NCBI GenBank assembly: GCA_963809485.1
Contig: CAWEJX010000008.1
Coordinates: 160,001 to 224,000 of the forward strand
Direction of reading: 5' to 3'
DNA length: 64,000 nt
Source: an uncultured Acidobacteriota bacterium
GTDB taxonomy: Bacteria > Acidobacteriota > UBA6911
In this document: one piece after another, positions 44,026 to 63,733 of the stretch
How positions within the stretch are numbered: the stretch's first letter is position 1
Layout: every line of letters starts with the position of its first letter
Made by a program: the position numbers and the translations under genes
The notes under the pieces: model-generated
Database searches by the model: none
What the model saw: the letters and a program-made list of their open reading frames with translations, nothing else
Told to the model about the DNA's origin: nothing

Positions 44026-45732
44026 TCATTTCGATTCCGCGATCGAGCGCATCGCGCGGCGACAGCATGCCGCCGGAGATGTTTTTCGCCTTGAACCCGT
44101 TCTGCAGACAGGATGCGCGTCGCGTAGTAGGCGCGCTGGGCGGAACGGCAGATGACGTGGATCTCGCGGTCGCGGGGAAGTTCGCCCAGGCGGCTGCGGA
44201 GTTGCGGCAGCGGAATGTTGACCGCGCCCGGCACGCTCTCCACGACCAGTTCGACCGGCTCGCGCACGTCGAGCAGGAACGCGCCGTCCAGCGAATCCCA
44301 GTGACTGAGCGGCATGTCGCCGCGCAGGACATTCGCGGCCATCATCCCGGCGAAGTTGACCGGATCCTTGGCGCTGCCGAACTGGGGCGCATAGCACAGC
44401 TCGGATTCTTCCAGGTCGTAGATCGTCGCGCCCATCTGGATGGCCATGGCCAGGGCGCTGATCCGCTTGTCCACCGCCGGGCCATCCTCGCCCAGCGCCT
44501 GCGCGCCGAGGACTTTTCCGTTGGATTTGCGGAAGATGAATTTCAACCCGAGCATCTTGGCGCCCGGGTAGTATCCGGCGTGCGAATTCGGGAACAGGTA
44601 GATCTTCTCGTAGTCCGTGTCTCCGAGCTTCTTGAGCGTTTTCTCGCTGACGCCGGTCCAGGCGGCGGCGCCCCCGAACAGCCCGATGATCGAGGTGCCC
44701 TGCGTGCCGCGGTAACGGGAATCGCGCCCGCAAATCACATCGGCCGCGATCCGGCCCTGCCGGTTCGCCGGCCCGGCCAGCGCAATCAGGCTCCACTGGC
44801 CGGTCCCGAAGTCCTTGACTTCGATGGCATCGCCGACGGCGAAGATGTCCGGGTCGCTCGTGCGCATGTGCTCGTCCACGCGGATGCCGCCGCGCTCGCC
44901 GATCGCGAGGCCGGCCGACTTGGCCAGGGTGGTGTCCGGCTTCACGCCAATCGCGAGGATGACGATGTCCGCCGGAAACGTTTTGCCGGAGCTGGTCAGG
45001 ACCTCGATCGCGCCGCCGTCCAACTGCTTGAATCCGACCACGCCGTCATTGGCGACAACCTGGACGCCATGTCTTGTCATGTGGCCCTGGACGAGGCACG
45101 CGATCTCCGGGTCCAGCGGGGACAGGACGTGATCGGGCTTCTGGATGAGGGTCACATCGAACCCGAGATGGACCAGGTTCTCCGCCGTCTCCAGACCGAT
45201 GAATCCGCCGCCGACGACCACCGCGCGCGGTCACTGGCTTGACCATCTGAATCCCCGAGTAGCTGAACATCCCCGCGAGAAACGTCGTGCCTTTTTCAAT
45301 CCACTCGCGGATCGTCCTCGCGTCGGGCACGGTTCGCACATGGAAGATCCCCGGCAGATCAATGCCCGGCAGGGGCGGATGAACCGAGGCCGCCCCGGGC
45401 GACAGCACGAGCTTGTCGTAGGACTCGGTCGTGACCTCGCCGGTCTTGACATTGCGCAGATTCACGGTTTTCTTCTTCGGATCAATCGCGATCGCCTCGC
45501 AGTTCGTGCGCGCATCGATCGCGAACATGGCGCGAAACATCTGTTCGGTCCCCACCAGGAGGCTCGATTCCTTTTCAATCACGCCGCCGACGTGGTAGGG
45601 CAGTCCGCAGTTCGCGTACGAAACGTACGGTCCGCGTTCGACCATGAGGATTTCGGCCTTTTCATCCAGCCTGCGCAGGCGCGCCGCACACGACGCTCCG
45701 CCGGCAACTCCGCCAACGATGATGACTTTCAT
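44026..45732 (-). CDS. CoA-disulfide reductase-rhodanese fusion (Cdr-RHD/Npsr-like; frameshifted)
   Basis: IVGGVAGGASCAARLRR, redox Cys motif SYANCGLPY, GGGFIGLE, ELCYAPQFGSAKDPVN, and a C-terminal rhodanese segment LDVRE...ICRSAQR. Confidence 0.9.
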
Positions 45733-45913
45733 CTGTGAACCCCCTGTCCGACTAATAAGCTGCTGTTTCGCCGCAGGTCCAGCGTCCCAATAAACCTCCT
45801 CATTGCCTTGGAGTTTCCAGTTTCCAGTTTGAAGGGCTTTAACTGGGAACGCTAAACGGGTAAAGGCGTCAGCAAGCTGCCGCACTCCAAAGCATGTGCG
45901 CCAAAAAGCTCAC

Positions 45914-47346
45914 TTACCTGTCCTCCTCGAATTCAGCTTCGACTTTGCCGGCCCGGATGGCGCGCTTCAGCGCCGCGTGGTCCTTCTCGTTCTGGTCCGC
46001 GTAGGCGACGGAAAAGGATGCGAGCGCCCGGTCGAAAGTGTCGCTCGTCCCCATATACCCGCTGAGCTGGACCGACAATCCCGCGCGCGCGTGGGAGAGC
46101 GCGAGCGCCCTGCCGCACCAGGTGGCGTAGAGTTCCATCTCGGAGGAGCCGAAGGTCTCGACGCGGATGCTGATTTTGATGTCCCTCAATTGGCGGACGA
46201 AGTAGTGGCGCTTGTCGTATTGCCCATGGTCCAGCCGAGGAACATGTCGCTGGCGGGCTGCATGCGCCGGTAGCCATCCACGACGCGCTGGCCGTGGTTG
46301 GGAAAGACGCTCGCGCCGGCGTACGGCTCCAGCACCGAGGCGCGCGCCTCCTTGACCTGAAGGAAGAGTGGATCCCCTTCGCCAGCCAGAAGAGCATCAC
46401 CCAGCAGAGGTCCCGACGCTTCCGATTCCAACTACTTTGATGGCGGCATCCTTAATCTCGTATCGGTCCAGCAGAGACCGGTAGGAGGACGGCAAGGTGT
46501 CGCGGTACCGTGCGAATGCGTCCATGAGATTTTTTGGATTATGCCCGGAGGGTGGCCTTCGCGCGTGAAAGATTGTCGGGAGTTGTCCTTGATGAGGGGC
46601 ATTTCCCCTTTGTGCTCCACCAGCTTCGGAAAGATGTCCTCGGCAATGCTGCGCGCACGCTCCTTCTGGAGACGCATCAGGGCTCGCTTACGGAGCCTGG
46701 GATTCTTGATGCTCGCCACCAGGTCGTCCGCATCCAGCGCCAGGTACCACAGCTCCAGCGTATTCATCTGGCTGAACTCGGCCATGGACTCGCGGTAAGT
46801 GCGAACGCAAGTCATAACCACATCCTTCGCCACAGCATTCGCTCAGGCCGTTGTCCCGGCAGGCCACCACGAAGCTTGCGGCGAGGCGCTTGACGTCCCA
46901 CTCCCATGGCCCCGGGAGCGTCTCGTCGAGGTCGTTGATGGAGAAGATGACCCGCCTCTCCGGCGTGGCGAATCCGCCGAAGTTGCACAGGTGTGCGTCC
47001 CCGCAGCACTGGACACGGATGCCCGAGACCGGCGTGGACGCGAGGTCCGAGGCCATGGTGAGCGCCGCGCCCCTGTAAAAGGTGAACGGCGATCGCGCCA
47101 TGCGCCCGTGGCGCAAGGGAAGCAGTTCGGGCAATCGCCCCTTCTCCGCCTTAAGGACCAGCTGGACCGCATCGGGACGGTCTTTGGGCGCCTTCCAGAT
47201 GGCGTGGGAGCTCCTCGGGCAGGCATCCCGCAATCGCTTACCGAGGGCGCGGGCCTCGTCACTGCGAAAGCCCCTTCGCTGAGGCTGGATTCCGCGCGGG
47301 GGGTGGGGCTGCACTTTGCGTTTCTCTCTTGGGTTTCGTGGTCCAT
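45914..47346 (-). CDS. DUF2252-domain protein (frameshifted)
   Basis: RHGRMARSPFTFYRGAA, CGDAHLCNFG, INDLDET.PGPWEWDVKRLAAS, LFLQVKEA and QPASDMFLGW across several frames. Confidence 0.88.
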
Positions 47347-47507
47347 GACGACCTGTCCCTTCATTGTTGCGCTCCCTGACGTAGTGAGGACGGCTCTCCA
47401 GAGCCGTCCAGGCAACGTCTATCGGACGGGTCTGCGAGACCCGTCCTCACAGGCTTGCTATCCCTCGCTACAAAACGTGGAAGCCTCCAATTCGTTCATC
47501 AGCTCAG

Positions 47508-48023
47508 CTACAGGGCCTTAGGAAGTATCATCCGTTCGGGAGTGAGGTTGTAGGTCCACGGACAGCCCGAGTTCTTCCAGCCGTTCTTCAACCGCTGGCC
47601 CTGAAAAACGCTGCCAGGATCCTCGACCGTATCGCCTTCCATGCCATCGGTGATGTTGTAAGCATGCTTGAATCCCGCCTGGGCGAGCAGGTTGACAGCG
47701 ATGGCGCTGCGGCCGCCGGACCGGCACATCACCAGGATCGTGTCGTCGGGCTTGGCCACTTCCTTCACGCGGGATACGAAATCCAGGAGGAGCTTCATGG
47801 GGAACTTCCCCTTTTCAGCGTCCCACTCGTACACCTGAGCAGCGATAGGAATTTTCCAGGCCATGGCCGGATGGCCTACAAAGAGAAATTCCTCAGGGGT
47901 TCGGACGTCGAGAATTTTCACCTTTTCAGGATCGGCCTTCCACTTCTCGTAGGCCTCCTTCGACGTCACATAGAGTCCCAGCACCGTCTGCTTTTCTTTG
48001 GGGATTTTATTGGGTTCAGTCAT
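47508..48023 (-). CDS. Rhodanese-like sulfurtransferase, copy A
   Basis: ILDVRTPEE.LFVGH and active-site loop MCRSGGRS. Confidence 0.9.
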   Translation of the reverse strand: MTEPNKIPKEKQTVLGLYVTSKEAYEKWKADPEKVKILDVRTPEEFLFVGHPAMAWKIPIAAQVYEWDAEKGKFPMKLLLDFVSRVKEVAKPDDTILVMCRSGGRSAIAVNLLAQAGFKHAYNITDGMEGDTVEDPGSVFQGQRLKNGWKNSGCPWTYNLTPERMILPKAL

Positions 48024-48215: not shown

Positions 48216-49385
48216 CTAGCCAATCCGTTGGCCTGACTTCAGCAGCTCAGTCGCATCGGGAAGCTTTGCCGTGGTGACCTTCTTCCATTGTTGCTCGAGC
48301 AGTTCCTTAGCTGCCTGTTCCAGGAATTCCGGCGCGGCCCACTTCTGCACATCGAAGTCGTGCTTGATGTAGCCGTGGCTCAGCATGAAGTCCTTGCCTA
48401 TCTCAACAGAAACAAGGTTCTGGGGCGACAGGTTGGGAACCATATCGATGTGCTCTATGCCCCTGAAAGTATGGTCGACGTCGAGGTAGAAGGTTTGCTT
48501 ATCAAGGATAGCTGCAGCAGCACGCTTGTGTTCATTGGCCCAGCGCCCTACTTTGATCATACCTTTCATGAATGTTACGGCGAGCTCAGGATGCTTCTCA
48601 GCCATCACGTCGGAGCAGGTGATGGCGGCAGGGATGTTGGCCACCTGCAGCGTCCAGTCGGGATACCTCGACAGGTCTTCGATAGCCTTGAACTTGCCGG
48701 TTGCTTCAGAAAGCTGCTGCAGCGGGCCGGTCTGCATATACATCGCATCTATGACGCCCTTCTCCAGCGCCGTCTCCAGCGGACGGAAAGCCAGGTCGTG
48801 CTTGTGGTCACGCCTCAGCCACAATTCTGACGGATTTTCCATGAGCGGACCCATCATTTCGGGCTTATCGTACCAGTCGTCGGGGTAGGGGAATTCCACG
48901 ATTTTTACATCCTTGCGGGTCATGCCGTTCAGCCTCAGCATCAGCTCTATGCCCTGTTCCTCCTGAATGCCCCACCAGTCGGTCTTGATGTTATTCTGGC
49001 TTCTTGAAAGCCCGATCTTCTTGCCTTTCAGATCGGCCATCCGGTAGATATCGTCCCTGGAGCGAACCAGCATGACGCCGCCTTCGCGCGGTGCATGTGT
49101 TACACCCAATAATCGTGTCCTGCGTATATCCGCCTGAACATGAATGGGTGGGAAAAGACCGCCAAAGCGGATGAGGTTGTCGAGGTTGTGAACGTAGTGC
49201 GGGTACCAGTCGTTCTCGGCACGGCAGCGGAGATAAAGGTAATTTACACCCATCTTCTTATACTCTTCCTTGGTCCAACCCAGTTCCTGGTCGACATTGC
49301 TGGCGGACACGAGGGGACAATTGGTGTAGTAGACCTCTTTCCAGTTCAACGGAACCGTGCTGAGTTTTTTAGCTTCCTTAGTCAT
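48216..49385 (-). CDS. DszB-like desulfinase homologue (periplasmic-binding-protein fold, no signal peptide)
   Basis: YYTNCP, HYVHN.DNLIRFGGLFPP and RTRLLG parallel the DszB segments TYSNCP (Cys27), HFTYD (His60) and TRFGGEIPP (Arg70), recalled from memory; also DLKGKKIGLS. Confidence 0.75.
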   Translation of the reverse strand: MTKEAKKLSTVPLNWKEVYYTNCPLVSASNVDQELGWTKEEYKKMGVNYLYLRCRAENDWYPHYVHNLDNLIRFGGLFPPIHVQADIRRTRLLGVTHAPREGGVMLVRSRDDIYRMADLKGKKIGLSRSQNNIKTDWWGIQEEQGIELMLRLNGMTRKDVKIVEFPYPDDWYDKPEMMGPLMENPSELWLRRDHKHDLAFRPLETALEKGVIDAMYMQTGPLQQLSEATGKFKAIEDLSRYPDWTLQVANIPAAITCSDVMAEKHPELAVTFMKGMIKVGRWANEHKRAAAAILDKQTFYLDVDHTFRGIEHIDMVPNLSPQNLVSVEIGKDFMLSHGYIKHDFDVQKWAAPEFLEQAAKELLEQQWKKVTTAKLPDATELLKSGQRIG

Positions 49386-49507
49386 GACTGTGTTCCTTTC
49401 GTTTTTTACGCATTCCGCGGACAGCGGTAATGGCAAGTTGTTTTAAACCAGGCCCGGCTTTGTGCCTGGATTGTTGAGTTGTCTCTGATTCCTATCTTGT
49501 CTCTGTG

Positions 49508-49900
49508 TCATTGTTTTTTTGCGCCGGATATGGTTTCGGAGATGGCGGACAGCAGGACATCGCGATCCACTGGTTTCCTCAGACATACGGAGGCTCCAAG
49601 CGCAAGCACCCGCTCGGCCGTGCCGGGTTCGTCATGAGCGGTGATGACGACGACCGGCACGGGCATCTGTTGGAAGCGGAAATCCCCCAGCAAATCAAAG
49701 CCATTGAGATCCGGCATGTGCAGGTCCAGCAACAGGCAATCCGGCGCATGTAAGCCCAGTGCAGCGAGGAACTCCTCACCGCCCGCATACTCCTCGACAC
49801 GGAAGCCGCAGCAGGAAAGCAATCGTCGAAGCGCCTTCCGCATTTCCGGCTCGTTGTCCAGCACGGCAATCACTGGTTGTGTCATTTGCGTCTTTGGCAT
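49508..49900 (-). CDS. Single-domain response regulator receiver
   Basis: AVLDNE, LLLDLHMPDLNG, ITAHD and LRKP. Confidence 0.9.
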   Translation of the reverse strand: MPKTQMTQPVIAVLDNEPEMRKALRRLLSCCGFRVEEYAGGEEFLAALGLHAPDCLLLDLHMPDLNGFDLLGDFRFQQMPVPVVVITAHDEPGTAERVLALGASVCLRKPVDRDVLLSAISETISGAKKQ

Positions 49901-50098
49901 CGCAGCAAAAGCCTATAGGAAATCGGTAATGCTATGCTACTAGACCTTAGTGTAGTCCCCTATTTCAGGGGCCTAACCCGGCGGACGTGGACGTAATCGG
50001 CTTATTTTTTCGCAGTCCACGGAATCCAAACCATGCCCAGGCGTGCGAAAATTTTGAGTCAGACTTTTCGGCATCGCGTGTCCCACTCAAAGACTCGG

Positions 50099-50617
50099 CT
50101 AGGGAACCTTAGGAAGTATCATCCGGTCGGGAGTGAGGTTGTAGGTCCAGGGACAACCCGAATTTTTCCAGCCATTCTTCAGCCGCTGGCCCTGGAAAAC
50201 GCTGCCCGGTTCCTCGACCGTATCTCCCTCCATGCCATCGGTAATGTTGTAAGCATTCCTGAATCCGGCTTGGGCGAGCATATTGACGGCTATAGCGCTG
50301 CGGCCGCCGGACCGGCACATGATCAGGATCGTGTCGTCGGGTTTGGCCACTTCTTTCACCCTCGAGACGAAATCCGGCAAGGGTTTAATCGGGAAAGCCT
50401 TCTTTTCGGCGTCCCATTCATACAGCTGAACGGCGATGGGAATTTTCCATGCCATCGCCGGATGGCCGACGAAGAGAAATTCCTCGGGTGTGCGGACGTC
50501 GAGGATCATGACCTTTTCGGGATCGGCCTTCCACTTCTCGTAGGCCTCCTTCGACGTAACATAAAGTCCAAGCACCGTCTGCTTTTCTTTAATAAGAGTT
50601 TCATTCGATTCAGTCAT
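50099..50617 (-). CDS. Rhodanese-like sulfurtransferase, copy B
   Basis: Near-identical to 47508-48023; MCRSGGRS loop. Confidence 0.9.
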   Translation of the reverse strand: MTESNETLIKEKQTVLGLYVTSKEAYEKWKADPEKVMILDVRTPEEFLFVGHPAMAWKIPIAVQLYEWDAEKKAFPIKPLPDFVSRVKEVAKPDDTILIMCRSGGRSAIAVNMLAQAGFRNAYNITDGMEGDTVEEPGSVFQGQRLKNGWKNSGCPWTYNLTPDRMILPKVP

Positions 50618-50668
50618 ATTATGTCCCTCCGTTAATCGTTCTTACCCTTGTCCGACAGCGCAGCGGCC

Positions 50669-53633
50669 TCACCCCGTATGGATGCCCGCTCCCACGGCAG
50701 GACGATCGGCCCGTCGGCGCGCGCACGACGGGCAGAGCTCGCGGTCTAGAAGAGCCGCCATATGATCCGGCAGGCGCAGCCGGACGAAATCCCGGTGTGC
50801 AGGAGTCTGGGTCGGCGCTCCACATTCGCTGCAAACCAGCAGCGGCTGTTCGCGCACAACGGTTCCCGTGATAATCGTGCGCCGCACTCCATCCCGATCC
50901 TCAATTCGGATCGCGCCCGTCGGGCAGACCTGCGTGCAGGCGCCGCAGCCGATGCATAGCTCCGCAGGCCGCGTGAAGTCGAAGTAGGCAAGCCGGCCGG
51001 CCGGCGTGTCGGCCATGCGCAGCGCCTCGACCCCCATCTCGCTGCAGGCGGCCATACACAGGCCGCAGCCGATGCACAGGTCGCAGCGCAGGCAGCGGCG
51101 GGCCTCGTCATGAGCCATCGCGTCGGTCAGGCCCTCCTCGATCCGGACGTAGTTGCCCTCGCCGAGAACTTCTTCGACACTCCTCTCGGGCATCGCGGCA
51201 CGGCGCAGGCTGTGTGCGATGGCCGGCCGCGATGTCCAGGGGCGACACCTCGGCGCGGCGCACCGGCTTGCCGGTGGCGGCGTCCATAACCGACCCGCGC
51301 AGCCAGGCGTCGATGGAAGCCGCGGCGATCTTTCCGGAGCGGATAGCCTCAACGGCCGTCCGCGGGCCGTGCTCCACGTCGCCGCCGGCGAAGACGCCCG
51401 GGACCTTTGTCATCAGGGTCTTCCGGTCCGTGACAAGGAAGCCGCGGTTGGTCTCGACCCCGCTGCCTTCAACGATCGTCAAGTCCGTGCCCTGGCCGAC
51501 GGCGAGGAGCACGTGATCGGCCTCGAGCGTCAGCAGGCGTCTGGAGTCGAACTTCGGGTCGAAGCGGCCGCTCGCGTCCTTGACCTGCTCGCAGAGCTGG
51601 AAGACGACGGCGCCGTCCTCCCCGACGCTGACCGGGCCCCAGCCGGGATGCAGGTTTACCCCTTGCGCCACGGCGGTCTCTATCTCGCCCGGGCTGGCCG
51701 GCATCTCGCGGCGTTTCTCCAGGCAGACCATGTCCACATGCTTCGCGCCCTCCCGCAATGCCGTCAAGGCGACGTCGATGGCGACGTTGCCGCCGCCGAT
51801 GACCACGGCCCGCGGCCCGACCCGCACGGTTTCGCCGCTGCGCACGGCGCGCAGGAAGTCGATGCCGCCGAGCACGAAGGGTTGATGGACGCCTTCGATC
51901 GGGATGTGGCGTGAGCGCTGAATGCCGAGGCCGAGAAACACCGCGTCGTAGCCCTTGCGGAAAGCCTCGATGCTCTCCACCTTGGAGTTGGTGTGAATTT
52001 GAACTCCCAGCAGCCCGGATCTGGTCGAGTTCCTTCTCGAGCAGATCGGGCGGCATGCGGTACGCCGGGATGCCGTAGCGCAGCATACCGCCGGCCTTCT
52101 CCTGCGCCTCGAAGACTTCGACCTGGTGACCGAGGGTGCGCAGGAAATAGGCCGCCGTGAGACCGGCTGGGCCGGAGCCGATGATGCCGATCCGCTTGCC
52201 CGTATCGGGCGCCAGTTCGGGTTTTGGGTAGCCGTCCTCGGCGAGGCAGTGCTCGGCCGCCTTGGCCTTCATCGGCCGGATGAAGACGGCACCGTCGCTG
52301 CCGCCGCGCACGCAGGCTGATTCGCACGGCGCCGGGCAGACCAGGCCACAGGTCAGCGGCAGCGGATTATCCCGCCTGATGACCTCGATGGTGGAACGAT
52401 AATCCCCATGACCGAGGTGGGCCAGGAAACTCGGGATATCGATGTTAGCCGGACAGGTGCGGTGGCAGGGCGCCGGATTGAGCTCCAGGCAGAGCCCTTC
52501 CGGGCAGGACTCACGCCGGACATGACGTTCCCACTGCTCTCGGTAGTAGCGCAGCGAACTGCCGAGCGGCCAGGCGGCCGCCAGCCCTTGCGTGGCCATC
52601 TCGAGCGCCACGCCGTCGAGTGCGGCCAGGTGGGACTGCTTCACCTCGGCCGAGGGTGATCTCGGCCACGAGACGCGCGCCGCGCGCCAGCAAACCGCGC
52701 ACCGGCGCCTCTTCGCCTTCGGCCAGCTGCCAGTGGCGATAGAGTGCGCGCCGGGTCTGTTTGACGACGCACACGCCCTCGGCCATCACCATAAGGCTGG
52801 ATGGCACAGGGACGATGCCCATGGATGCAAATGAGTGTGGCTCGCATGAAACGTTCGTCCTGGAGAACGGCAGGAAGCCACCCAGACCGTCGTCGAAAAC
52901 GAGCACGGCGTCCTGGCCTTCCACTTCGACGCCGCCCCCCCAGTTGCTCGATCTGGCTTCGCAGATTCCCGGAACGCCCAAGCTCGACCAGGCCGCGCTG
53001 CTTCATGCCGCGCCGGAGCGTCAGCAGCGACCCATCGAGGTCCGCCGCGCCAGCGAACAAAAGGGCAATCCGGCACCAGGTTTCCGGCGTGTGGATCAGC
53101 CGTGACCGGTCGGCGGCATTTGCTTCCGCCCAGCAACTGCGCCGGCAATTGCGCTGTACCTCCACCTGCATACGGGGAGTGGTGATTTGGGCGAGCGAAC
53201 GGATGGCATCGACCGTATTTAGGAAGGCGGCTTCCCGGCCGGTCAGCTCCGCCGGCAGAAGCAGCTCGACCTTGCGGCTGTCGCGCAGCCCGGCAGCGAT
53301 CAGGACGCCCTCGGCCAGCTGCCAGGGAGCTCCATCGAGAACGGCGGCCGTGCCGCGTTCCTGCGCGTCGAAAGTGGTCGCGTCGATCACCAGCACCGAC
53401 GGCCCGTGGCCGCGCAGGAATTGCCGCCAGGCAATATGGATCGGTTCACCCGCGGCGCCACATTCGGCCATGCCGGATTCCCGCAGTCGCTGCAACCGCT
53501 GCAGGGGCGCCAACGCCCGGGCCAGGGCCAAACCGGGCAGAGCGCTGTCAAGAGTCGGCGCCGGCGGGACGTCACCCGCAAGGGCAGCCCCCCCCGCATC
53601 GAGCCAGGCCGGCAGCATCTGGAGTTCGCTCAT
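50669..53633 (-). CDS. Multidomain flavoprotein: degenerate NuoF-like N-terminus, GltD-like NAD(P)H oxidoreductase and 4Fe-4S ferredoxin domains (frameshifted)
   Basis: APCHRTCPANIDIP, CGLVCPAPCESAC, IIGSGPAGL, GGMLRYGIP, IGGGNVAIDVA, VFAGGD, RCLRCDLCIGCGLC and CIGCGACTQVCP across four ORF pieces. Confidence 0.85.
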
Positions 53634-54157
53634 GCCCCCTCCTTAGCGACACCCGGAGGCTCGGCGATGAGATAACGGGCGTAACGCTCGCGACGCGGGT
53701 CCGGCGCGTCGGTGGCGAGACCAAAGGATAGGCAACCGGTCACGCACTTGGTGACGCAGGCCGGCTGGAGCCCGCCATCGAGCCGATCCATGCAATAGTC
53801 GCACTTGATCACTTTTTGGGTTGCCGGATTCCACTGGGGCGTGCCCCAGGGGCACGCAGCCATGCAGCTCTTGCAGCCGACACACACACTGGACTGGACG
53901 AAGACGATGCTGTCCTTCTCGCGCCGCTGCATGGCGCCGGTCGGGCAGGCTTTCATGCACCACGCCTCCTCGCAGTGGAAGCAGGGCATGAAGACGAAAC
54001 GCATGCGCGGATGCCCGTCGACATTAAGCGGGCCGAAGGTGACGATTTTGCACGGGGCCGGGCCGGCGCCGAGATCCTTGTTGGACTTGCAGTGAACCTC
54101 GCAAGCCTGGCAGGCGATGCAGTTGGCCTCATCGTGGCGCAGGATGTAATTGCTCAT
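53630..54157 (-). CDS. Four-cluster Fe-S electron-transfer subunit (PsrB/DmsB family)
   Basis: CIACQACEVHC, CFHCEEAWCMKACP, CVGCKSCMAACP and KCDYC...PACVTKC; ATGA overlaps on both sides. Confidence 0.93.
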   Translation of the reverse strand: MSNYILRHDEANCIACQACEVHCKSNKDLGAGPAPCKIVTFGPLNVDGHPRMRFVFMPCFHCEEAWCMKACPTGAMQRREKDSIVFVQSSVCVGCKSCMAACPWGTPQWNPATQKVIKCDYCMDRLDGGLQPACVTKCVTGCLSFGLATDAPDPRRERYARYLIAEPPGVAKEGA

Positions 54158-56310: not shown

Positions 56311-56347
56311 TACAATCTCCTTCCCTCCGATCGCTCAGCCCCAACGA

Positions 56348-57398
56348 TTACACCTCGGAAAACTGAATGACGACCTTGATATCATCGGGCTCTCGCGCCA
56401 ACGCCTGCTCGAAATTCTCCGGTTTTTCACGCCGTGTAATGAGGCCCTTCAGCCACGTTCGATCCGCGTGGGCCAGGGCTTCACCGGCCTTGTACCAGTG
56501 CCGCTTGTTGGCATTCACACTGCCGACCAGCACCAGGTTTCTCAGGACTATTGCTGCCGAGGCGTCTGCTACGGACATTCGGCTGGTAATACCGCCGCTT
56601 CCAACCCCCGTGAGGCAGAGGACCCCGCCCGCTCTGAGCTTCTGCATCGAATCGCCGATCACCGCTCCGACACCGGTACACTCGATGATGACTTCCGGCT
56701 CGAATCCGAGATCAGTAGCCCTCCCGGAGTGATACGTCGCACCGAGCGCTCTTCACCAGATCCGGCTTGGGACCCGAAGTGACGCGGTCCAGCACGTGGA
56801 CGTCCAATCCGCGCTGCACACCCAGGAGGGCGGCGAGAAGGCCGATCGGCCCGGCACCGGTCACCAGCACGCTCCGCGGTTCCCAGAACGAGCGCTGGCC
56901 AACCGCCATCACCATCTCCCAGGCTTTGGTCACGACTGTCGTCGGCTCGAGCAGCACGCCCAGGATTCCCAGTGTGGAATCCACTTTGATCGTGTATTCG
57001 GGCTCAATCCGCCATCGCTCCGACATGTACCCGTCAATCTGTTTGATGCCGCGTTCGGTATACTGACCGTTGTGGCACATGTCCCACTCCCCCACCGCAC
57101 AGCTGGAACACGGAACCGGGTCAGGGCGGCGAACGATGCCGACGACGAGATCGCCCGGCCTCAAACCCTTGACCGGACCCGGGTCGATCACTCGGCCGAG
57201 AGATTCGTGCCCCAACACGAGCCGTGATTTGCCCTCGGGCGCCCAGCCGTATTTGCCTTCGACAATTTCGACGTCGGTTCCACACACCCCGACGGCGATA
57301 GCCTCCACGAGCACCGAGCCGTTCTGCGGATCCGGTTCCGGGATATCTTCCCACCGTGCGGTTCCCGGTTTCTTTGGTTCTACAGTGATGGCTTTCAT
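56348..57398 (-). CDS. Zn-dependent glucose 1-dehydrogenase (MDR family; frameshifted)
   Basis: GVCGTD, LGHE, CSSC...C and GAGPIG; C-terminal [12 protein letters not shown] is in a second frame. Confidence 0.88.
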
Positions 57399-57658
57399 TT
57401 GAGTTCCTCCTTCGGTTGACTCAGTAAAGCGACGAATAGAGAGGTGTCGTCATCGGATATGCCCGCCAGCCCATCTTCGCCCCAGCGATATGCCCGCGAG
57501 CGGGCGTGGTCATGCGTGAAGTAATTCCAGGCATCTCCGCTTTCGCTGTAGTCTTCGCGTACGGTTCCCCATTGCCGCTCGCTCAGGTAGGGCCCCCATT
57601 TTTTCCAGGGAGCTAGTTTCGTCCGGGCTTCTTCAAGTCTTGTCGCTTCAGCGTTCAT
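57395..57658 (-). pseudogene. N-terminal fragment of a GH63/MGH1-like glycoside hydrolase
   Basis: [21 protein letters not shown]...[21 protein letters not shown] is the conserved start of these long proteins, but this ORF ends after about 87 aa. Confidence 0.85.
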
Positions 57659-57689
57659 AAAGAGTTCCTCTAAAAAGCGGGGGGAATCC

Positions 57690-57710
57690 GGGGACACTGG
57701 TGACTGTCCC
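57690..57710. repeat. REP-like palindrome (reverse copy of GGGGACAGTCACCAGTGTCCC)
   Basis: GGGGACACTGGTGACTGTCCC. Confidence 0.7.
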
Positions 57711-57719
57711 TTTCCATAC

Positions 57720-58864
57720 CTACTTCGTTGATGCCCGATTCTGCAGACGCATCTCTTCCCATTCCACCATGCTGGAAGGAACGTGGAACCATTCTTCTTC
57801 CGATACGGGCACCATCACGATCGCCTCGGTTGCGCATCCAATCACGCACACGCCGCAACCGATGCACTTGGCTCGTTCTACCTTCGCCTTGCCATTCTCA
57901 TCCTCAGCGATGGCGTCCACCGGGCAACGCTCGATGCAGGCGCCGCAGGCAATGCACTCTTCCGGATCGATGACGGCGCGGTAGTTCGATCTCTGCGGCC
58001 CTTCCGCCAGACCGGCGAGCTGTCTTGGCCGTGTAAATATCCCACAGCAGCAGGCGCAGCAGTTGCACGTGCCGACGAACTGAGGCGTCTCCGCGCACAT
58101 GGTGAAGCCATAGAACGCGAGGTGGACGTGCCCCATCTGCTCGAGCTTACCAAGGAGCTTCGACGCCTCCTCCCGGCCAATGACGGTTTCGCCGAGCGGG
58201 GTCTGAGGCGGCAGCCCGACGAATCCGCAACGCTTCATGGGCAGATTGCAGCTGTAGTCCGTGCAGTAACTCCCTCTCCCTTTTGCACACGCAGGGAATC
58301 ACGAGAAAACGCTCGTGCCGTTTGAAGTGGGCGTCGATGTCAAGGTGGGGTTCGCGCTGCGATATACTCGGGCTTGAGTGATCCTCGCACCGGAACGACG
58401 CCCAGCAACCCGGGCCGCGGGCGAAAGGATCCGCTCGCCGCCGCCCTCGATCACGTATTGCTCGAAGAGCTCGGCGAACTCCTTGTCCAGCAGCCGCATG
58501 TTGGCTTCATACCAGCCGACCATGAACGGGCCCAGCCGGTACCTCTTCTCGCCTTCGACCTCAGGCTTCAGACCGGGTGCCGCCATGCCGGGAGAGTCGA
58601 GGCGAACCAGACGCCGCGGTATCAGGCTCTCGAGCGTCGCCGTGACCTCGCCGACATCGCGGCCCACCCGTTTCGCAATCTCGGCACGCGGTTTCGGGAA
58701 AGCGGGTCAATTGGCCGGCCAGCCAGACCTCCTCTGGTGTGAACGACTTCTTGATAAGGTTTATTTCCACCCCGGAGGGCGTCCGGGGAAAGCCATGCGG
58801 GAGCGCCTCCAGCGCAGCCGCCAGTCGTTCGTAAATGTCTTCTGGATTTGTCAGAATTGCTCAT
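57720..58864 (-). CDS. HTH plus Cys-rich 4Fe-4S binding protein (frameshifted)
   Basis: FTPEE and [13 protein letters not shown] at the N-terminus, then [13 protein letters not shown], and the ferredoxin motifs [12 protein letters not shown] and [11 protein letters not shown]. Confidence 0.8.
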
Positions 58865-58913
58865 TGATAATCTCCTTTTTGCAGCTGCTTGGCCTGCCTT
58901 AAAAGGCGAACGG

Positions 58914-59034: not shown

Positions 59035-60012
59035 TCATTTCAAACCCGGGGCTGTTTGGCCACCGCGGCCAAAAGCTTCGTCGATGATGGATTGCAGGTA
59101 CTGGACCAGTTCATCGGACGGTGTTTTATAATCGTCCAGTTCGTACACAACACCCAGGTGTTCGTACTTGCCCAGGCCAAAGCGGTGATACGGTAACAGC
59201 TCATAATCAATCACGTTCTTGTGCGGGCGAATGAACGCCAGGACCGCCCGGATGTGCTCTTCGTCGGCATTGATGCCGGGAATCAGCGGCGTGCGCGCGA
59301 TAAAGTCGATGTCCGGGAACGTCTCGTACGCTCGCTTGAAGTTCGCCAGGATCCGCTCGTTGCTCACACCGGTCCACTTCTTGTGCCGCTCCGGGATCGA
59401 GAGCTTATGATCGTGAAGCATCGTATCCACATGAGGCAATACCTTTTCCACGAAAGCCCAGGGCACATTGCACGCCGTTTCGATGGCTGTATTGAAGCCG
59501 CGCTCGTGGGCTTCCTCGAGCAGCGCGGCGCTGAAATCCGGCTGCAGCAAGCACTCGCCGCCGCTCAGGGTAATGCCGCCGCCGGTCGAGCGATAGAAGG
59601 AGGCGTCCTTTTCCACCTCGTCCAGCACCTCGTTTAAGGTCATCTTCTTGCCGTACATGGAGAGCGCTTTCGGCGGGCAGAGAGAAACTAACGCCTCGTC
59701 GCAGTCGCCGGCCAGGTCCCAGTTGACGCGGACCTTGTCATCGTCGGCGCCCTCCACTACGAAGAACGCCCCTTCCGGGAAGGGAGGCTTGAGGCACACG
59801 CCGCATGCCTTCTTTCCGGTGCACAACTTGGGGTCGTAGGCCAATTCCGATTTGAAGCGGATGCTTTCGGGATTGCCGCACCATTTGCAGCGCAGCGAGC
59901 AGCCTTTGAGGAAAACCGTTGTACGGATGCCAGGACCGTCGTGGCTGCAATAGCGCTGGATATTCAAAACGATTCCGCTTGGGGCGGATGTGTCGGCTGA
60001 CTGGTTCTTCAT
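59035..60012 (-). CDS. Glycyl-radical enzyme activating enzyme (radical SAM) with a reduced ferredoxin insert
   Basis: HDGPGIRTTVFLKGCSLRCKWCGNPES, GGITLSGGE and ELLPYH; ATGA overlap with the PFK-like gene. Confidence 0.95.
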   Translation of the reverse strand: MKNQSADTSAPSGIVLNIQRYCSHDGPGIRTTVFLKGCSLRCKWCGNPESIRFKSELAYDPKLCTGKKACGVCLKPPFPEGAFFVVEGADDDKVRVNWDLAGDCDEALVSLCPPKALSMYGKKMTLNEVLDEVEKDASFYRSTGGGITLSGGECLLQPDFSAALLEEAHERGFNTAIETACNVPWAFVEKVLPHVDTMLHDHKLSIPERHKKWTGVSNERILANFKRAYETFPDIDFIARTPLIPGINADEEHIRAVLAFIRPHKNVIDYELLPYHRFGLGKYEHLGVVYELDDYKTPSDELVQYLQSIIDEAFGRGGQTAPGLK

Positions 60013-61184
60013 AGTTCCCTCCCCAGGCAAATGCCAAGTGACCGCGCGATCTGCATGAATTCGCTGTTCGCGGGCACAGTTCTGACTTTGTTGATCGCTT
60101 CCGCCAGCGGCACGAAGGTGATGTCCGGCGGGACGAATGCCATCATCACGCCATATTTGCCGGCTTGAATTGCACGTATGGCGCCGGCCCCGTAACCCAA
60201 TCCCAGTTGACGATCAACCGCAGAGGGGGTGCCGCCCCGAACCCAGGGGCCCAGGACCATTGGAAAAGTCTCCTCGGCGATCAGCAACTGCAGCCTGGTC
60301 GCCACAGACTCGGCTGCCTGACCGGATTTCTGGATGACAAATTCACTCGCATCACCGGTTGCCAGCGGAGACAGAGATGCTTTGAACGTGGATTCTTTTG
60401 CCTGTGGTTGCGGACCGTCCGTAAATCTTGCTCCTTCGGCCACCACCACCAGCCCGTAAGGCCGCCGGGGGCTAACCTTGTCCTTCAACCTCGCAGCTAT
60501 CACCCGCAGATCGCAGGGGATCTCCGGGATCAGGACCGCATCGGCACACACGGCGATGCCGGCCTGAAGAGCCAGCCAGCCGGCCTGCGCGCCCAGGACC
60601 TCGACCACGCCAATCTTCCGGGCTGACTGGGCAGCCTGGCGGGCCTTGTCGAGCATTTCAATGGTGAAGCTGAGGGCGCTGTTGAACCCGAAGGAGACCG
60701 CGGTGGCGGCGATGTCGTTCTCGATCGTGCGGGGGATACAGACAGCATTGAGCCCTTTGCGGTGGAGTCTATGGAAAATGCTCATCCCCCGGCCGCCAAC
60801 AACCGCAATCAGGCCATCAATTCGTTCCGCCTGTAGTCTTTTCAGAAGTTCATCGGACATGTCCACTTCCTCGACCATGCCGTCTTCATTCACCGTGCGC
60901 ACATGAAACGGGTCCACCCGGGCCGATTGGCCGAGGATCCCCCCGGCGGCCGGATCCAGGTTCTCGGCCAACTGGGGACTGAGTGGCACCAACCCGCCAT
61001 CGGGGTATCGATCGGGGTGAAGCAACCCGTCAAACCCATCCCGGATGCCGAGTATCTCCCATCCCAGTCTTCCTGCCGCCAGAGCCGCACCCTTGACCAC
61101 GGAATTCATCCCTGGAACGTAGCCGGCCCCTACCACAATGGCAATGCGTCTAAGAAAACCGGCATGACCTACTTCAATACTCAT
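60009..61184 (-). CDS. Phosphofructokinase-fold protein with substituted catalytic motifs
   Basis: The PfkA scaffold is present (PGMN, GIRDGFDGL, SFGFNSA, ADAVLIPE, VVVAEG, RGGTPSAVDR), but GGD, GGDG, TIDND, MGR and GHxQR are all altered. Confidence 0.85.
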   Translation of the reverse strand: MSIEVGHAGFLRRIAIVVGAGYVPGMNSVVKGAALAAGRLGWEILGIRDGFDGLLHPDRYPDGGLVPLSPQLAENLDPAAGGILGQSARVDPFHVRTVNEDGMVEEVDMSDELLKRLQAERIDGLIAVVGGRGMSIFHRLHRKGLNAVCIPRTIENDIAATAVSFGFNSALSFTIEMLDKARQAAQSARKIGVVEVLGAQAGWLALQAGIAVCADAVLIPEIPCDLRVIAARLKDKVSPRRPYGLVVVAEGARFTDGPQPQAKESTFKASLSPLATGDASEFVIQKSGQAAESVATRLQLLIAEETFPMVLGPWVRGGTPSAVDRQLGLGYGAGAIRAIQAGKYGVMMAFVPPDITFVPLAEAINKVRTVPANSEFMQIARSLGICLGREL

Positions 61185-61266: not shown

Positions 61267-61300
61267 CCGGTGCGGCGTGGCGGAGCGCCACGCGCACCGG
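61267..61300. terminator. GC-rich stem-loop just after the GRE stop codon
   Basis: CCGGTGCG(G)CGTGGCG-GAG-CGCCACGCGCACCGG; no poly-U tail, so possibly an mRNA-stabilising or partial terminator. Confidence 0.4.
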
Positions 61301-61318
61301 CGCCACCTTTCCTCAGCA

Positions 61319-63733
61319 CTAGCCGAAACTCTGCTCCGTGCGTGCGATGATTTCGTTCTGAACGCCAGGATGCAGCCTTGTGAAGAAAGCGCTGAAACCG
61401 GCTACCCGAACCACGAGGTCAGGGTACTTTTCCGGGTGTTTCTGCGCGTCCCTCAGGATGTTGGTGTCCAGCACATTGAACTGAATGTGATAGCCGTCGT
61501 GGTCCATGTAGGTCTTGACGAGGTTCAGGACATTCTCCCGGCCCTTGCGGGTTTTGAGCTGATTGGGGGGGAGCTTCAAGTTCATGTGCGTCGCGGTGAA
61601 CTTGATCGCGTCCGCACCCTTCGCTGCGGACATGACCAGCGCGGTCGGCCCGGTGACGTCGGTTCCGGGCATGGCCGACAGGCTGCCATCGGTGAGCGCC
61701 ACGCCGGCCTTTTTGCCGGTGGGCAGGGCCCCGGTCATCAGACCCATCAGGTTGTGGATGCTCTTAGTGTAGGAGTCAGGCGCCGATCTGATGTCCCGGC
61801 TGATGTAATTGCCGCCCCCCTCCACGTTCTGGAAGGCTTGGAAGATGGTCTCGTACACCCGGTGGACGAGCTTGTTGACCTCGGGGATGTCGTTTCCATG
61901 CTTGGGCGCTTCGAAGCACATCTTCCCGACGCGCTCGTATTCCCCCTCGAAGTTGGCCGCCAGGGCCTTCTTGAGCTCGGCCATGGTCAACTTCTTCGTG
62001 TCGTACACGAGGTGCTTCACCGCCATAAGCCCGTTGGCGGCGTCGACGCCGCCAACCGTGATCTGGGCGACCGTGTAGTAGTTGGCTCCACCGTTCCAGA
62101 CCTCGGTGCCGGTTTCGATGCAGCCCCCGGTGAGGATGGAGCGCCAAGTGACCGGCAGATACTCGGCACACAGAATGCTCGCGATCCACGCCTCGCGGCG
62201 GAGCGTGTCCTCGCAGAACTGGAGCTGCTTCTCGAAGGCCGCGTACAGCTCCTCGAAGTCCTTGAAGGACTCTGGATCGCCGGTCTTAGGTCCGATCTGC
62301 TGCTTGGTGCGAGGGTCAAACCCGTTGTTCAGGGTGAGCTCGAGGACCTTCCCCAGGTTGGGCTGCCCCTCCACGGGATGCCCCGTCTCGTAAGGGATGT
62401 AGCTTCCCACGCACGCCCCGATGCAGGTCCGTCGTGCCTTCTCGAGGGTGAGCCCCTTTTTGCTGTTCGCGAAGAGGTTCAAGGCTCGCTTGATCATCAC
62501 GTCGCCGTTGACGAACTGCGGCATGCCGACCCCGGTATCGATGACGTCGAGGACCTTTTCGAGGAACTTGCCGCTCATCTTCTCGGTGTAGCAGCAGGAC
62601 AGCGGCGGCTGGGGCAGCTTCAGGTACTTGGCGGCATCGAGGATCAGGTAGTCCATCTCCGCCGTGGCGTCGTCTCCATCCTCGGTGAAGCCTCCGAGGG
62701 TGATGCTCTGGCCGAGGTCCGCGGAGTTCTGGATCTTGACATACTCACCGTAGTAATAACCGATCTCGTTCAGCTTGATGAACAGGTGCTTCAGCAGGGT
62801 GGTGGCTTCCTCCGGACCGATCCGGCCGGCCGCCTTGTCACTCTGATAGAACGGCTCGAGGTTCTGGCCCAGGTAGGCCTCCGAGTAGCCGCATCCGACC
62901 TGCTCGATCTCCGCGCAGATGTGGCACAGGAAGTGGCACTGAAGGGCCTCCCGCAGCGTCCGGGCAGGATGCTCGGGCACGTGTTCGCAGACCTCGGCGA
63001 TGTCGAGCAGCTCCTGCTTCCGCTCGCCGTTCTTTTCCTTCGCCGCCATCTCCCGGGCCAGCTCGGCGTACCGGTTGGCCAGTCGGATGATGGCCCTCAT
63101 CGTGATCAGACAGGCCTCGTAGAAGTAGAACTTGGAAGCATTCGGCAGCCGCATGTCGAGGGCCTTCTGCCGCTCCTCGACTTCCTTGATCATGCTGGCC
63201 AGGCCTTCTCTGTAGACGCGGGGGTAGTTCAGGTTGCCTCCGCCGCCCGGCCACGACATGAACTCGGCGATGAGGCCGGACTTGTAGACCGGGTCCGGAT
63301 CGAAGCCGTACTTCTTGATGAAGATCTCATCGGCCCGCGGCCGCAGCGCCCACTTGTCCCAGTACTCGAGCGCCCACTGGTTCGCCTTCCGGTCCTCCGG
63401 GGTCTTCGAGTTCTCGACCGTCTTCTCCTGCTTCATCCACTCCACGTTCCATTCCGGATACGTGTAGACTGCATTGACGCTGCTCGCCATGCTGCCCACG
63501 ATGAGGTTGTCATCGATGTACAGCTTCTTCCTCTCAATCAACTGTTCGAAGAACTTTGCCCGGCGGATGATTTGCTGATAGCCGGCTGTGCCCTCGTAGA
63601 CCTCCGCCATGATGCGGACCCGCTCGTTGTCGATCTCCTGGGGCGTGTTTATGAGCTGAGCCTTCAGCCGATCGATCCGCGCGTCATCGGCTTTAATCTT
63701 ACCGGTGGATTGCTTGCTGGTTTCCGTTTTCAT
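61319..63733 (-). CDS. Uncharacterised glycyl radical enzyme (PFL-like family), about 804 aa
   Basis: C-terminal Gly loop HIQFNV...LVVRVAGFSAFF; Cys loop CIGACVGSY; AGGAG RBS before ATG 63733. Confidence 0.95.
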   Translation of the reverse strand: MKTETSKQSTGKIKADDARIDRLKAQLINTPQEIDNERVRIMAEVYEGTAGYQQIIRRAKFFEQLIERKKLYIDDNLIVGSMASSVNAVYTYPEWNVEWMKQEKTVENSKTPEDRKANQWALEYWDKWALRPRADEIFIKKYGFDPDPVYKSGLIAEFMSWPGGGGNLNYPRVYREGLASMIKEVEERQKALDMRLPNASKFYFYEACLITMRAIIRLANRYAELAREMAAKEKNGERKQELLDIAEVCEHVPEHPARTLREALQCHFLCHICAEIEQVGCGYSEAYLGQNLEPFYQSDKAAGRIGPEEATTLLKHLFIKLNEIGYYYGEYVKIQNSADLGQSITLGGFTEDGDDATAEMDYLILDAAKYLKLPQPPLSCCYTEKMSGKFLEKVLDVIDTGVGMPQFVNGDVMIKRALNLFANSKKGLTLEKARRTCIGACVGSYIPYETGHPVEGQPNLGKVLELTLNNGFDPRTKQQIGPKTGDPESFKDFEELYAAFEKQLQFCEDTLRREAWIASILCAEYLPVTWRSILTGGCIETGTEVWNGGANYYTVAQITVGGVDAANGLMAVKHLVYDTKKLTMAELKKALAANFEGEYERVGKMCFEAPKHGNDIPEVNKLVHRVYETIFQAFQNVEGGGNYISRDIRSAPDSYTKSIHNLMGLMTGALPTGKKAGVALTDGSLSAMPGTDVTGPTALVMSAAKGADAIKFTATHMNLKLPPNQLKTRKGRENVLNLVKTYMDHDGYHIQFNVLDTNILRDAQKHPEKYPDLVVRVAGFSAFFTRLHPGVQNEIIARTEQSFG

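Follow-up and report, generated by a model that had tools for sequence, protein, structure and literature searches.

The glycyl radical enzymes (GREs) that cleave carbon-sulfur bonds form a small group: to our knowledge only three such C-S lyases are known, IslA, IseG and HpsG, all with the same glutamate and arginine apparatus. According to the available part of a 2026 GRE review (PMC13450708), all GRE eliminases and isomerases keep the CXE motif, and each of the three C-S lyases relies on two Arg and one Gln. Here we describe a GRE of a new clade, encoded in a 64,000-nucleotide stretch of contig CAWEJX010000008.1 from an uncultured Acidobacteriota bacterium (assembly GCA_963809485.1, our genome G000). 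This whole stretch is called the window, and coordinates are window positions; the loci and genomes compared with it carry L and G numbers. The GRE gene lies in a minus-strand run of ~35.7-63.9 kb which we read, with moderate confidence, as one copy of a modular anaerobic island moving between phyla. The gene content, the motifs and the co-occurrence of the genes were observed directly. We consider it an even call that the island encodes an anaerobic radical pathway for a polar organosulfur substrate, later steps of which would deal with sulfinate/sulfite and sulfane sulfur.

The island GRE shares with IslA, IseG and HpsG the GRE fold, the VRVAGFS motif, the catalytic Cys and an activase of its own; like theirs, its gene lies among sulfur-handling genes. 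Unlike them, it has neither the CXE glutamate nor the Arg/Gln/Arg anchor, it comes with an obligatory partner of phosphofructokinase (PFK) fold, and the genes downstream encode a putative desulfinase and a persulfide reductase instead of a dissimilatory sulfite reductase. The core and the sulfur module of the island consist of the following genes; domain and family calls are from Pfam and NCBIfam, with scores against the model cut-offs, and structural relatives are from PDB matches.

61319-63733, minus strand: GRE (PFL-like PF02901, 497.8 bits; Gly_radical PF01228, 95 bits)
60009-61184, minus strand: PFK-like protein (PF00365, 208.2 bits vs cut-off 30.9)
59035-60030, minus strand: GRE-activating radical S-adenosylmethionine (SAM) enzyme, the activase (TIGR02494, 312.7 bits vs cut-off 174.35)
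57720-58700, minus strand: ferredoxin-like Fe-S protein (Fer4 domains)
50099-50617, minus strand: single-domain rhodanese, copy 1 (PF00581; active-site loop CRSGGRS)
48216-49385, minus strand: DszB-like protein, putative desulfinase (PDB 2DE2, E 1.1e-11)
47508-48023, minus strand: single-domain rhodanese, copy 2 (PF00581)
43959-45885, minus strand: CoADR-rhodanese fusion (CoADR-RHD), CoA-persulfide-reductase type (TIGR03385 on both pieces)
43083-43949, minus strand: BASS/SBF family carrier (PF01758)
41458-43082, minus strand: SulP family anion carrier, in two frames (PF00916)

A scan of species genomes with the GRE gave 80 loci: 59 clade members at at least 60% identity, 20 loci in a clade of ~42% identity, and L094, which first seemed to hold a distant GRE (36-37%) beside PFK-like and activase genes but is actually a clade member broken into many frames. 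Relatives of the GRE in many phyla are 77-90% identical. For the clade, identities of 70-92% were seen in loci bearing about a dozen phylum-level labels, namely Acidobacteriota, Bacteroidales, Ignavibacteria, Kiritimatiellia, Verrucomicrobiota, Pirellulales, Gemmatimonadota, Aminicenantes, Actinomycetota, Nitrospiraceae, Chloroflexia and Pseudomonadota. For the main counts we took those clade loci that have 20 kb or more of sequence, 30 in all, and the neighbours within 10 kb. PFK-like and activase genes were each present in 28/30, the same subfamily of CoADR-RHD in 23, DszB-like genes in 19, the Fe-S protein in 18, BASS in 14, rhodanese in 10, enoyl-CoA hydratase and GH63-like genes in 7 each, SulP and nitroreductase-ferredoxin in 5 each and the molybdenum (Mo) module in 2. 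At least one of DszB-like, CoADR-RHD and rhodanese stood beside the GRE in 26/30 loci, and three of the four loci lacking a nearby sulfur gene carry a cassette-type CoADR-RHD (68-85%) further along the same contig, one of them with a DszB-like gene as well. By comparison, PFK-like, activase, Fe-S protein, CoADR-RHD, DszB-like, BASS and rhodanese genes were found in 0/20 of the neighbouring non-clade GRE loci. An earlier reading of the window, made from the sequence alone (hereafter the sequence-only reading), had proposed looking for such co-occurrence across genomes, and from the side of the GRE it is there. Since the grouping recurs in other phyla, it is more than chance.

Among the loci of ~42% identity is a sister clade of the GRE, whose holders are gut Desulfovibrio, Mailhella and their relatives (Desulfovibrionaceae; L071-L086, L096, L099, L100). 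The enzymes of this sister clade have no CXE (GCVS) and have a Cys at the position of HypD Asp278 (beta-1). A sigma-54 activator lies nearby in 11 of these loci, and PFK-like and sulfur genes in none.

The genomes of the window's own phylum also support the grouping. Among 401 sampled genomes, the GRE clade is present in 4 and a DszB-like gene in 6, that is, in 3/4 of the holders of the GRE clade vs 3/397 of the others. A CoADR-RHD of at least 75% identity was found only in G000, G081, G371, G374, G418 and, as a partial copy, in G313, all other matches reaching at most 61%, and these six genomes all hold the GRE clade or a DszB-like gene, or are partial. Within the same genus, 1/24 other genomes has the clade; this is G018 (84% complete), whose island consists of the core plus an alcohol dehydrogenase (ADH), receiver, DszB-like, rhodanese and DUF2252 genes, with aldehyde:ferredoxin oxidoreductase and ethanolamine lyase genes at the site of the Mo enzyme. 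Note that in this locus (L014) frame-broken EutB, EutC and the aldehyde:ferredoxin oxidoreductase lie between the Fe-S protein and ADH genes, and that a HipA-like kinase gene sits inside the island on the opposite strand (L014, 13485-14738).

The island looks different when entered from the sulfur side. Searching metagenome contigs for the DszB-like protein yielded 80 loci (74-96% identity), 27 of which have at least 6 kb of flank; CoADR-RHD was present in 15/27, nitroreductase-ferredoxin in 9/27, rhodanese in 7/27 and BASS in 6/27. The sulfur module is thus a unit of its own, often found with no GRE within 10 kb, and the GRE core almost never occurs without the module. This asymmetry is real and its size is uncertain: a reach of 10 kb would miss the GRE in the window itself, which lies 12 kb from the DszB-like gene.

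The GRE frame is open to 63880, with the ATG at 63733 as the likely start (relatives have ~805 amino acids). Its barrel, glycyl radical domain, Cys loop and cognate activase place it, as judged from the sequence, in the PFL-like superfamily, and it scores below the cut-off of every NCBIfam equivalog (HypD NF043068, 490.8 vs 1100; HpsG, 416.3 vs 1000). The closest solved structures are HypD, the best PDB match (E 6.8e-125), and the B12-independent glycerol dehydratase (GD; E 4.5e-116), both aligning over nearly the full length; IslA is among the weakest matches (E 3.5e-76). The catalytic Cys aligns with HypD C434 and GD C433. Among 34 intact relatives, the glycyl radical motif reads VRVAGFS in 31 and VIRVAGFS in the other 3, and the Cys loop reads GACVGS (the type of the window) in 27 and GGCVPC in 7, with Gly or Pro at the place of the CXE glutamate in 34/34. 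A second Cys, in the motif GCGYSE at the position of HypD Asp278, is invariant (34/34), and WPGGGGN stands at the position of HypD Arg156-His160 in 30/34.

We mapped the HypD active-site residues, taken from the available part of PMC7077986, onto the clade by hand on the HypD alignment: Glu436 becomes Gly, His160 becomes Gly (within WPGGGGN), Asp278 becomes Cys, Tyr450 becomes Gln and Thr645 becomes Lys. With the first three of these replaced and the equivalog score below its cut-off, HypD was rejected as the identity of the GRE. IslA numbering was fixed on PDB 7KQ3 through the D. piger ortholog and then aligned with the clade, where R189 is replaced by Pro, Q193 by Gly and E470 by Gly or Pro, and the position of R678 varies (R/Q/K); the anchor residues are kept in the D. 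piger IslA ortholog and in a second CTE-type GRE. The arylacetate decarboxylase AAD (PDB 7E7L) resembles the island GRE in having no CXE, and its loop GGCVLHQ is similar to the GGCVPCF of the second subclade, but it is less similar overall (E 7.7e-95) and has no PFK-like partner. The review, in its available part, states that AAD has no small subunit (PMC13450708). The glycine- and polar-rich site of the clade suggests a pocket with ample space, suited to a substrate that is polar and probably anionic.

The second constant member of the core is the PFK-like protein of 390 amino acids. It has the PFK fold (PDB 1ZXX, E 4.4e-34), and all NCBIfam PFK equivalogs score below their cut-offs. In PFKs, residues D103, D127 and R171 and the GGD loop have roles in catalysis and in metal or phosphate binding. 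With the numbering checked on 1ZXX and the window protein aligned with 48 relatives, D12 is Y in the window (Y/F in 45/48), D103 is R (R/Q/K in 43/48, D not being among the five commonest residues listed), G124 is R (R/K in 48/48), D127 is E (E in 45/48), R171 is A (E in 39/48), D175 is W (W in 48/48) and H249 is P (P in 41/48). N128 and R252 are kept, as is R72, looked at in the window protein alone. By these alignments, the phosphoryl-transfer residues are replaced and the catalytic site is remodelled; a canonical phosphofructokinase was rejected, the fold being present and the catalytic motifs replaced. A housekeeping role is unlikely, since the genome has two other PFK-family genes elsewhere. 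Both are ~35% identical to the island protein and keep TIDND; one also has GGDGS and MGR, and the second has GGGGT and MGH.

The PFK-like gene adjoins the GRE gene and overlaps the activase gene by 22 nucleotides in the window; the two frames overlap by 10-19 nucleotides in 18/26 loci and lie within 24 nucleotides of each other in the other 8. Cofolding of activase and PFK-like protein gave a score of 0.55 (median of three runs), the best of 3 controls reaching 0.00. The mark used is reached by 116/157 solved complexes and 2/215 mismatched pairs; at scores of 0.60 or below just 18/157 complexes pass, and both passing mismatches lie there. The runs agree in at least 55% of the contacts, with a pLDDT (a model confidence value) of at least 82 for the partner. 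These models give weak support to the idea that the PFK-like protein may bind the activase, and we regard it, with modest confidence, as a partner of the activase or of the GRE that does not act as a kinase. As with the accessory subunits of other GREs (HPAD gamma, BSS beta/gamma, MASS delta), an extra, always co-inherited protein is encoded with the GRE. The island partner differs from those subunits in being a 390-residue protein of PFK fold which the models place, weakly, on the activase and not on the GRE. The available part of the 2026 review describes no PFK-type partner of GREs, and outside its reference list the word 'kinase' does not appear there (PMC13450708).

The Fe-S protein (~380 amino acids) has a Cys-rich middle and a C-terminus with 2x[4Fe-4S]; a search of the Atlas with it returned generic ferredoxin clusters only. 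In Bacteroidales-type and some other loci (L025, L026, L029, L031, L032, L059 and L061, among others), the activase is followed by one or two additional PFK-like paralogs, each with an Fe-S protein gene behind it, which hints that these two proteins also work as a pair. In L050, L055, L056, L057 and L062 a SAM synthetase gene stands directly past the activase, and in L088 past the Fe-S gene; it may provide a dedicated SAM supply. In the GGCVPC-type loci among those with the SAM synthetase, the Fe-S gene was not found.

The DszB-like protein aligns over its full length (residues 20-358) with PDB 2DE2, that is, DszB, the 2'-hydroxybiphenyl-2-sulfinate desulfinase of the aerobic 4S pathway. It shares the fold family and keeps C27, H60 and R70-F-G-G73 (R70-x-G-G73), with S25 replaced by Thr; the roles of these residues are given in the available part of PMC6100217. 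The relation is distant, and unlike the 4S pathway the island has no DszA/DszC oxygenases and an anaerobic setting. The protein scores 58 bits against the SsuA-family model, below the cut-off of 163.5. No signal peptide was found in it, and from its sequence we regard it as a putative cytoplasmic desulfinase.

The intact ortholog of the CoADR-RHD in L023 matches, over its full length, PDB 3ICR (E 2.3e-158), 3NTA and 8A56 (E values up to 3.2e-133), which are the B. anthracis CoADR-RHD, the Shewanella Npsr and a CoA-persulfide reductase. Both catalytic cysteines are kept in the window pieces, the redox Cys in SYANCGLPY and the rhodanese Cys in VICRSAQR. In contrast to these relatives, the island protein scores below the TIGR03385 cut-off (434 vs 578.8 bits) and belongs to a distinct subfamily; members with at least 75% identity occur only alongside the island or its sulfur module. 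DsrA was not found in G000 (95.7% complete), so sulfite respiration via Dsr is not the outlet, which leaves room for enzymes linked to NAD(P)H.

The two rhodanese copies form a diverged direct repeat (47503-47802 and 50094-50393; 86% DNA identity over 300 nucleotides). Identity to the single rhodanese of G018 is 93% for copy 2 and 85% for copy 1, suggesting that the Mo module arrived along with a rhodanese of its own. This module and the other accessory genes of the run are listed below.

57425-57658, minus strand: MGH1/GH63-like glycosidase remnant (tblastn with the intact L031 protein)
56351-57419, minus strand: Zn-ADH/glucose-dehydrogenase-like protein of the medium-chain dehydrogenase/reductase (MDR) type (ADH_N and Glu_dehyd_C)
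54154-56310, minus strand: Phs/Psr-like molybdopterin subunit (Molybdopterin, Molybdop_Fe4S4 and Molydop_binding domains)
53630-54358, minus strand: four-cluster Fe-S subunit, DmsB/PhsB type (Fer4_11; DmsB TIGR02951, 126 bits vs cut-off 214)
50669-53633, minus strand: NAD(P)H-side flavoprotein of the Mo enzyme, in five pieces (domain matches)
49508-49900, minus strand: stand-alone response-regulator receiver (PF00072)
45933-47314, minus strand: DUF2252 protein, in three or more pieces (PF10009 on two pieces)
35734-38115, minus strand: sigma-54 activator with PAS domains (Pfam)
31675-34137, minus strand: sulfatase (named by the sequence-only reading, and present)
28217-29206, minus strand: anaerobic sulfatase maturase (TIGR03942, 406.5 bits vs cut-off 349.45)

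The minus strand holds every long gene from 24.5 to 63.9 kb. Along transcription, the order is GRE, PFK-like, activase, Fe-S protein, glycosidase remnant, ADH, Mo subunit, 4Fe-4S subunit, flavoprotein, rhodanese 1, receiver, DszB-like, rhodanese 2, DUF2252, CoADR-RHD, BASS and SulP, followed by two outer-membrane-like proteins and the sigma-54 activator, with the sulfatase and its maturase further on. Every gene named in the sequence-only reading is therefore present and on the minus strand, including the SulP, BASS, sulfatase and maturase genes that it had placed further downstream (28217-43949). Its 'GH63' proved to be just residues 6-83 (78 residues) of a 914-residue MGH1/GH63-like protein, whose intact form in L031 matches Pfam MGH1-like_GH and Glyco_hydro_63; its 'gdh' is redefined as the Zn-ADH/glucose-dehydrogenase-like MDR protein. 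It had taken both for unrelated inserts. Such genes recur in these neighbourhoods, however, and in L106, L130 and L147 GH63-like and gdh-like genes lie directly beside DszB-like and CoADR-RHD genes.

The Mo enzyme was also correctly described as soluble. Its catalytic subunit is closest to PhsA (NF012032, 499.9 bits vs cut-off 694; 84% identical to the L053 protein), and a four-cluster Fe-S subunit is present, as in PhsABC/PsrABC. In contrast to those enzymes, the Fe4S4 cysteine motif begins at residue 23 and leaves no space for a Tat signal, and no NrfD/PsrC-type membrane subunit was matched between 50 and 57 kb. Instead, there is a flavoprotein (978 amino acids in L053), presumed to be the NAD(P)H link; its N-terminus weakly resembles NuoF, and it further has a GltD-like part and 2x[4Fe-4S]. 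These features indicate a cytoplasmic enzyme in which an NAD(P)H-type flavoprotein takes the place of the membrane subunit. The sequence-only reading had included the enzyme in its proposed pathway; it is a rare add-on, with 4 known loci, standing beside the GRE in 3/59 clade loci and occurring in 1/401 genomes of the phylum sample (G000 alone).

The conserved unit extends down to the sigma-54 activator at 35734-38115. Full-length relatives of this activator (49-59% identical over ~780 amino acids) lie beside the cassette in L047, L091, L032 and L045, and it is probably the regulator of the island. Matches to the sigma-54 promoter consensus were not in excess: there are 25 in the window vs 33 expected, and 3 vs 2.9 expected in the DNA ahead of the GRE, where none of the three is upstream of the gene itself. 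The receiver and DUF2252 genes are local additions: the receiver was found in 0/59 clade loci at 50% identity or more, but is present in G018, and DUF2252 in 2/59. A second stand-alone receiver, split over two frames and beside an HlyD-like gene, lies directly upstream of the GRE past the end of the window (L001, 4103-4494).

We infer that the modules act jointly, that the substrate contains sulfur, and each of the chemical steps that follow. In the radical core, the new-clade GRE would work with its obligatory PFK-fold protein, the activase and the ferredoxin-like protein, which probably feeds electrons for activation. The substrate would most likely be an organosulfur compound that is polar, anionic and fairly large; the GRE would abstract a hydrogen from it and break the C-S bond or an adjacent bond, without the glutamate-assisted ketyl route of IslA. 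The missing CXE glutamate points to a chemistry other than the ketyl route; beta-scission releasing sulfinate or another sulfur leaving group is one speculative option. The product would be a sulfinate or a sulfur species at the sulfane level, which the sulfur module would turn into sulfite and sulfide: the cytoplasmic DszB-like enzyme would convert R-SO2- to R-H and sulfite, CoADR-RHD and the rhodaneses would reduce sulfane sulfur to H2S with NAD(P)H, and BASS and SulP would serve as anion carriers. In the window and three other loci, the Mo enzyme may add an NAD(P)H-linked reduction of thiosulfate, polysulfide or a related S-oxyanion.

This arrangement would be one of feeder and sink, in which the product of the GRE core depends on the sulfur module, with the Mo enzyme in that role in a few genomes, and the module can also serve other sources. 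The one-sided dependence of the GRE core on the module is the reason why we favour an organosulfur substrate. The sequence-only reading had proposed an anaerobic organosulfur route in general terms; the linkage seen from the GRE and the DszB residues stand behind it, but its analogy with IslA and HpsG does not hold, and the modules are separable. More doubtful, and offered as a tentative extension, is a new mechanistic class of GRE (no CXE, a second invariant active-site Cys, a glycine-rich substrate loop and an obligatory, catalytically remodelled PFK-fold partner on the activase) that would carry out oxygen-free desulfurisation of a large, polar organosulfur compound. In that case the candidate substrates would be a sulfosugar, sulfone, sulfinate or sulfonate, and the DszB-like protein and the CoA-persulfide reductase would mineralise the released sulfur.

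Several observations weigh against a joint organosulfur pathway. Entered from the DszB-like gene, a GRE, PFK-like or activase gene was found in just 1/27 loci; the sequence-only reading had named independent occurrence of the modules as evidence against its proposal, and from this side they are indeed separable. L121, L144 and L158, with ~10 kb on both sides of the DszB-like gene, show no GRE, PFK-like or activase gene; G345 (96% complete) has a DszB-like gene and no GRE match, and G081, also with a DszB-like gene, has no clade GRE and just one that is ~30-39% identical. Conversely, L057 and L058, which carry the Mo module and no nearby DszB-like gene, have no DszB-like gene anywhere in their genomes, so the desulfinase is not obligatory. 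There is no conserved substrate-specific enzyme, and thus no direct pointer to sulfur in the GRE substrate; the GRE lacks the residues by which the known C-S lyases anchor the sulfonate, and the PFK-like, GH63-like and glucose-dehydrogenase-like genes could equally indicate a sugar-type substrate. Six genes of the run are frame-broken in G000, so the island may not be functional here. Finally, the compared genomes are related and the cassette is mobile, so that the counts are of non-independent events.

Some of these points lead to the strongest alternative, which we consider a serious rival, though less probable than our own reading: the GRE core would act on a sulfur-free substrate (a sugar, a sugar acid, the aglycone of a glycoside or another polar metabolite), and a separate module for sulfur scavenging or defence would share the island since both units are useful in sulfidic, anoxic habitats. 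The frequent absence of a nearby GRE from the sulfur module fits such a division, as do the missing Arg/Gln/Arg anchor and the recurrence of PFK-fold, GH63-like and glucose-dehydrogenase-like genes in the neighbourhoods; CoA-persulfide reductases and rhodaneses are, moreover, stress-response genes. However, a PFK-like protein that has lost its phosphoryl-transfer residues is weak evidence for sugar phosphate chemistry, and the cassette genes are missing from all 20 non-clade GRE loci. The presence of the same CoADR-RHD subfamily on the contig in 29/30 clade loci, across about a dozen phylum labels, is also hard to explain without a functional need.

A different question, compatible with any reading of the intact island, is whether the copy in G000 is decaying, with real frame breaks and several pseudogenes. 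At least 11 frame breaks within ~20 kb split six genes: SulP, CoADR-RHD (one break between 45232 and 45398), DUF2252, the Mo flavoprotein (four breaks, near 52946, 52635, 52005 and 51209, giving five pieces of what is a single 978-residue protein in the short-read locus L053), ADH (a break near 56750, the two pieces being 92% and 86% identical to the L031 protein) and the Fe-S protein, where two compensating frame shifts at ~58240-58400 leave and then regain the frame that is single and open in G018 and L023. The number of breaks, the reduction of one glycosidase gene to 78 residues, which is a real deletion, and the presence of the GRE clade in just 1/24 other genomes of the genus would all fit decay. 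Nevertheless, we consider decay unlikely and indel errors of the assembly the likelier source of the breaks, because other GRE paralogs of G000 are also fragmented, the GRE of L094, from the same kind of assemblies, lies in more than 8 pieces, one break sits in a run of seven G, and relatives' short-read contigs differ by one base exactly at 52012 and 56752 (one contig each, which is weak; at 56752, the ADH break site, the contig is one base shorter). In addition, frame-broken genes are spread over the whole genome. In public sequencing runs, the maximum share of the sampled words from 49000-58900 was 0.08, and the matching contigs were short and came from relatives only. Further GRE paralogs, 29-34% identical to the island GRE, lie on contigs C4, C7, C12 and C20 of G000; those at C4:228542-230439 and C12:63424-65758 each lie in several frames, consistent with an assembly that contains many indel errors.

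Very improbable, in our judgement, is a chance mosaic of unrelated operons with no joint function. Accessory gene order and orientation do vary between loci, the receiver and DUF2252 genes show no conservation across the clade loci, and rhodanese copies of 86% identity suggest the merger of two variants. Against this stands the recurrence of the same families, at 55-92% identity, beside the clade in many phyla and not beside the sister clade. The weakest alternative, a sulfonate sulfite-lyase of the IslA/IseG/HpsG kind, can practically be set aside: the surrounding sulfur genes and an activase whose best equivalog is HpsH (345.1 bits, below the cut-off of 430) point to it, but the absent CXE glutamate (34/34), the replaced R189 and Q193, the variable R678 and the poor structural match refute membership of the GRE in that family.

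Other genes of the window were noted apart from the island. A second, ordinary GRE system lies on the plus strand at 15609-20057, with acetate kinase, a canonical pyruvate formate-lyase (751 amino acids, PFL-like 703 bits) and its activase. A plus-strand cluster for the use of aspartate, asparagine and serine at 5498-12424 comprises a DcuA/DcuB carrier, an aspartase/fumarase-type lyase, an asparaginase, a DcaP-like porin and a serine dehydratase. At 24545-26702, a CHAD/Ppx-like protein stands beside a PPK2 that matches just profile positions 42-171 of 229 and is probably truncated or frame-broken. The DNA is G+C-rich. An open reading frame cluster on the opposite strand (c5, 446 amino acids, no family match) was rejected as probably an antisense artefact.

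Literature searches, with subscription journals outside their reach, gave among the matches listed no paper whose title or abstract concerns a PFK-like partner of a GRE. At the level of search listings of the same reach, no paper linked GREs with sulfoquinovose or sulfofructose, DszB/desulfinase, CoADR/rhodanese/persulfide, Acidobacteriota/organosulfur/peatland or sulfinate/sulfone/thiosulfonate/arylsulfonate, and no listed paper presents a cassette of this type. The available parts of the 2026 GRE review (PMC13450708) and of a 2026 sulfoquinovose review (PMC12890257) describe no such cassette.

If our reading is right, a sulfur-linked GRE with a different mechanism would widen the chemistry of the superfamily, and a kinase-fold protein recruited to partner a radical SAM activase would be a novelty among GRE systems. 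An anaerobic desulfinase of the DszB type would, in turn, be relevant to biodesulfurisation. The cassette is compact and intact copies are available (for example in L023), so that it is directly testable. A large part of soil sulfur consists of sulfonates and related forms. On the more doubtful extension to a new mechanistic class, the island would stand for a widespread way of turning over organic sulfur in anoxic soils and wetlands that has so far gone unseen. Our reading could also bear on the oxygen-free mineralisation of organic sulfur outside the gut.

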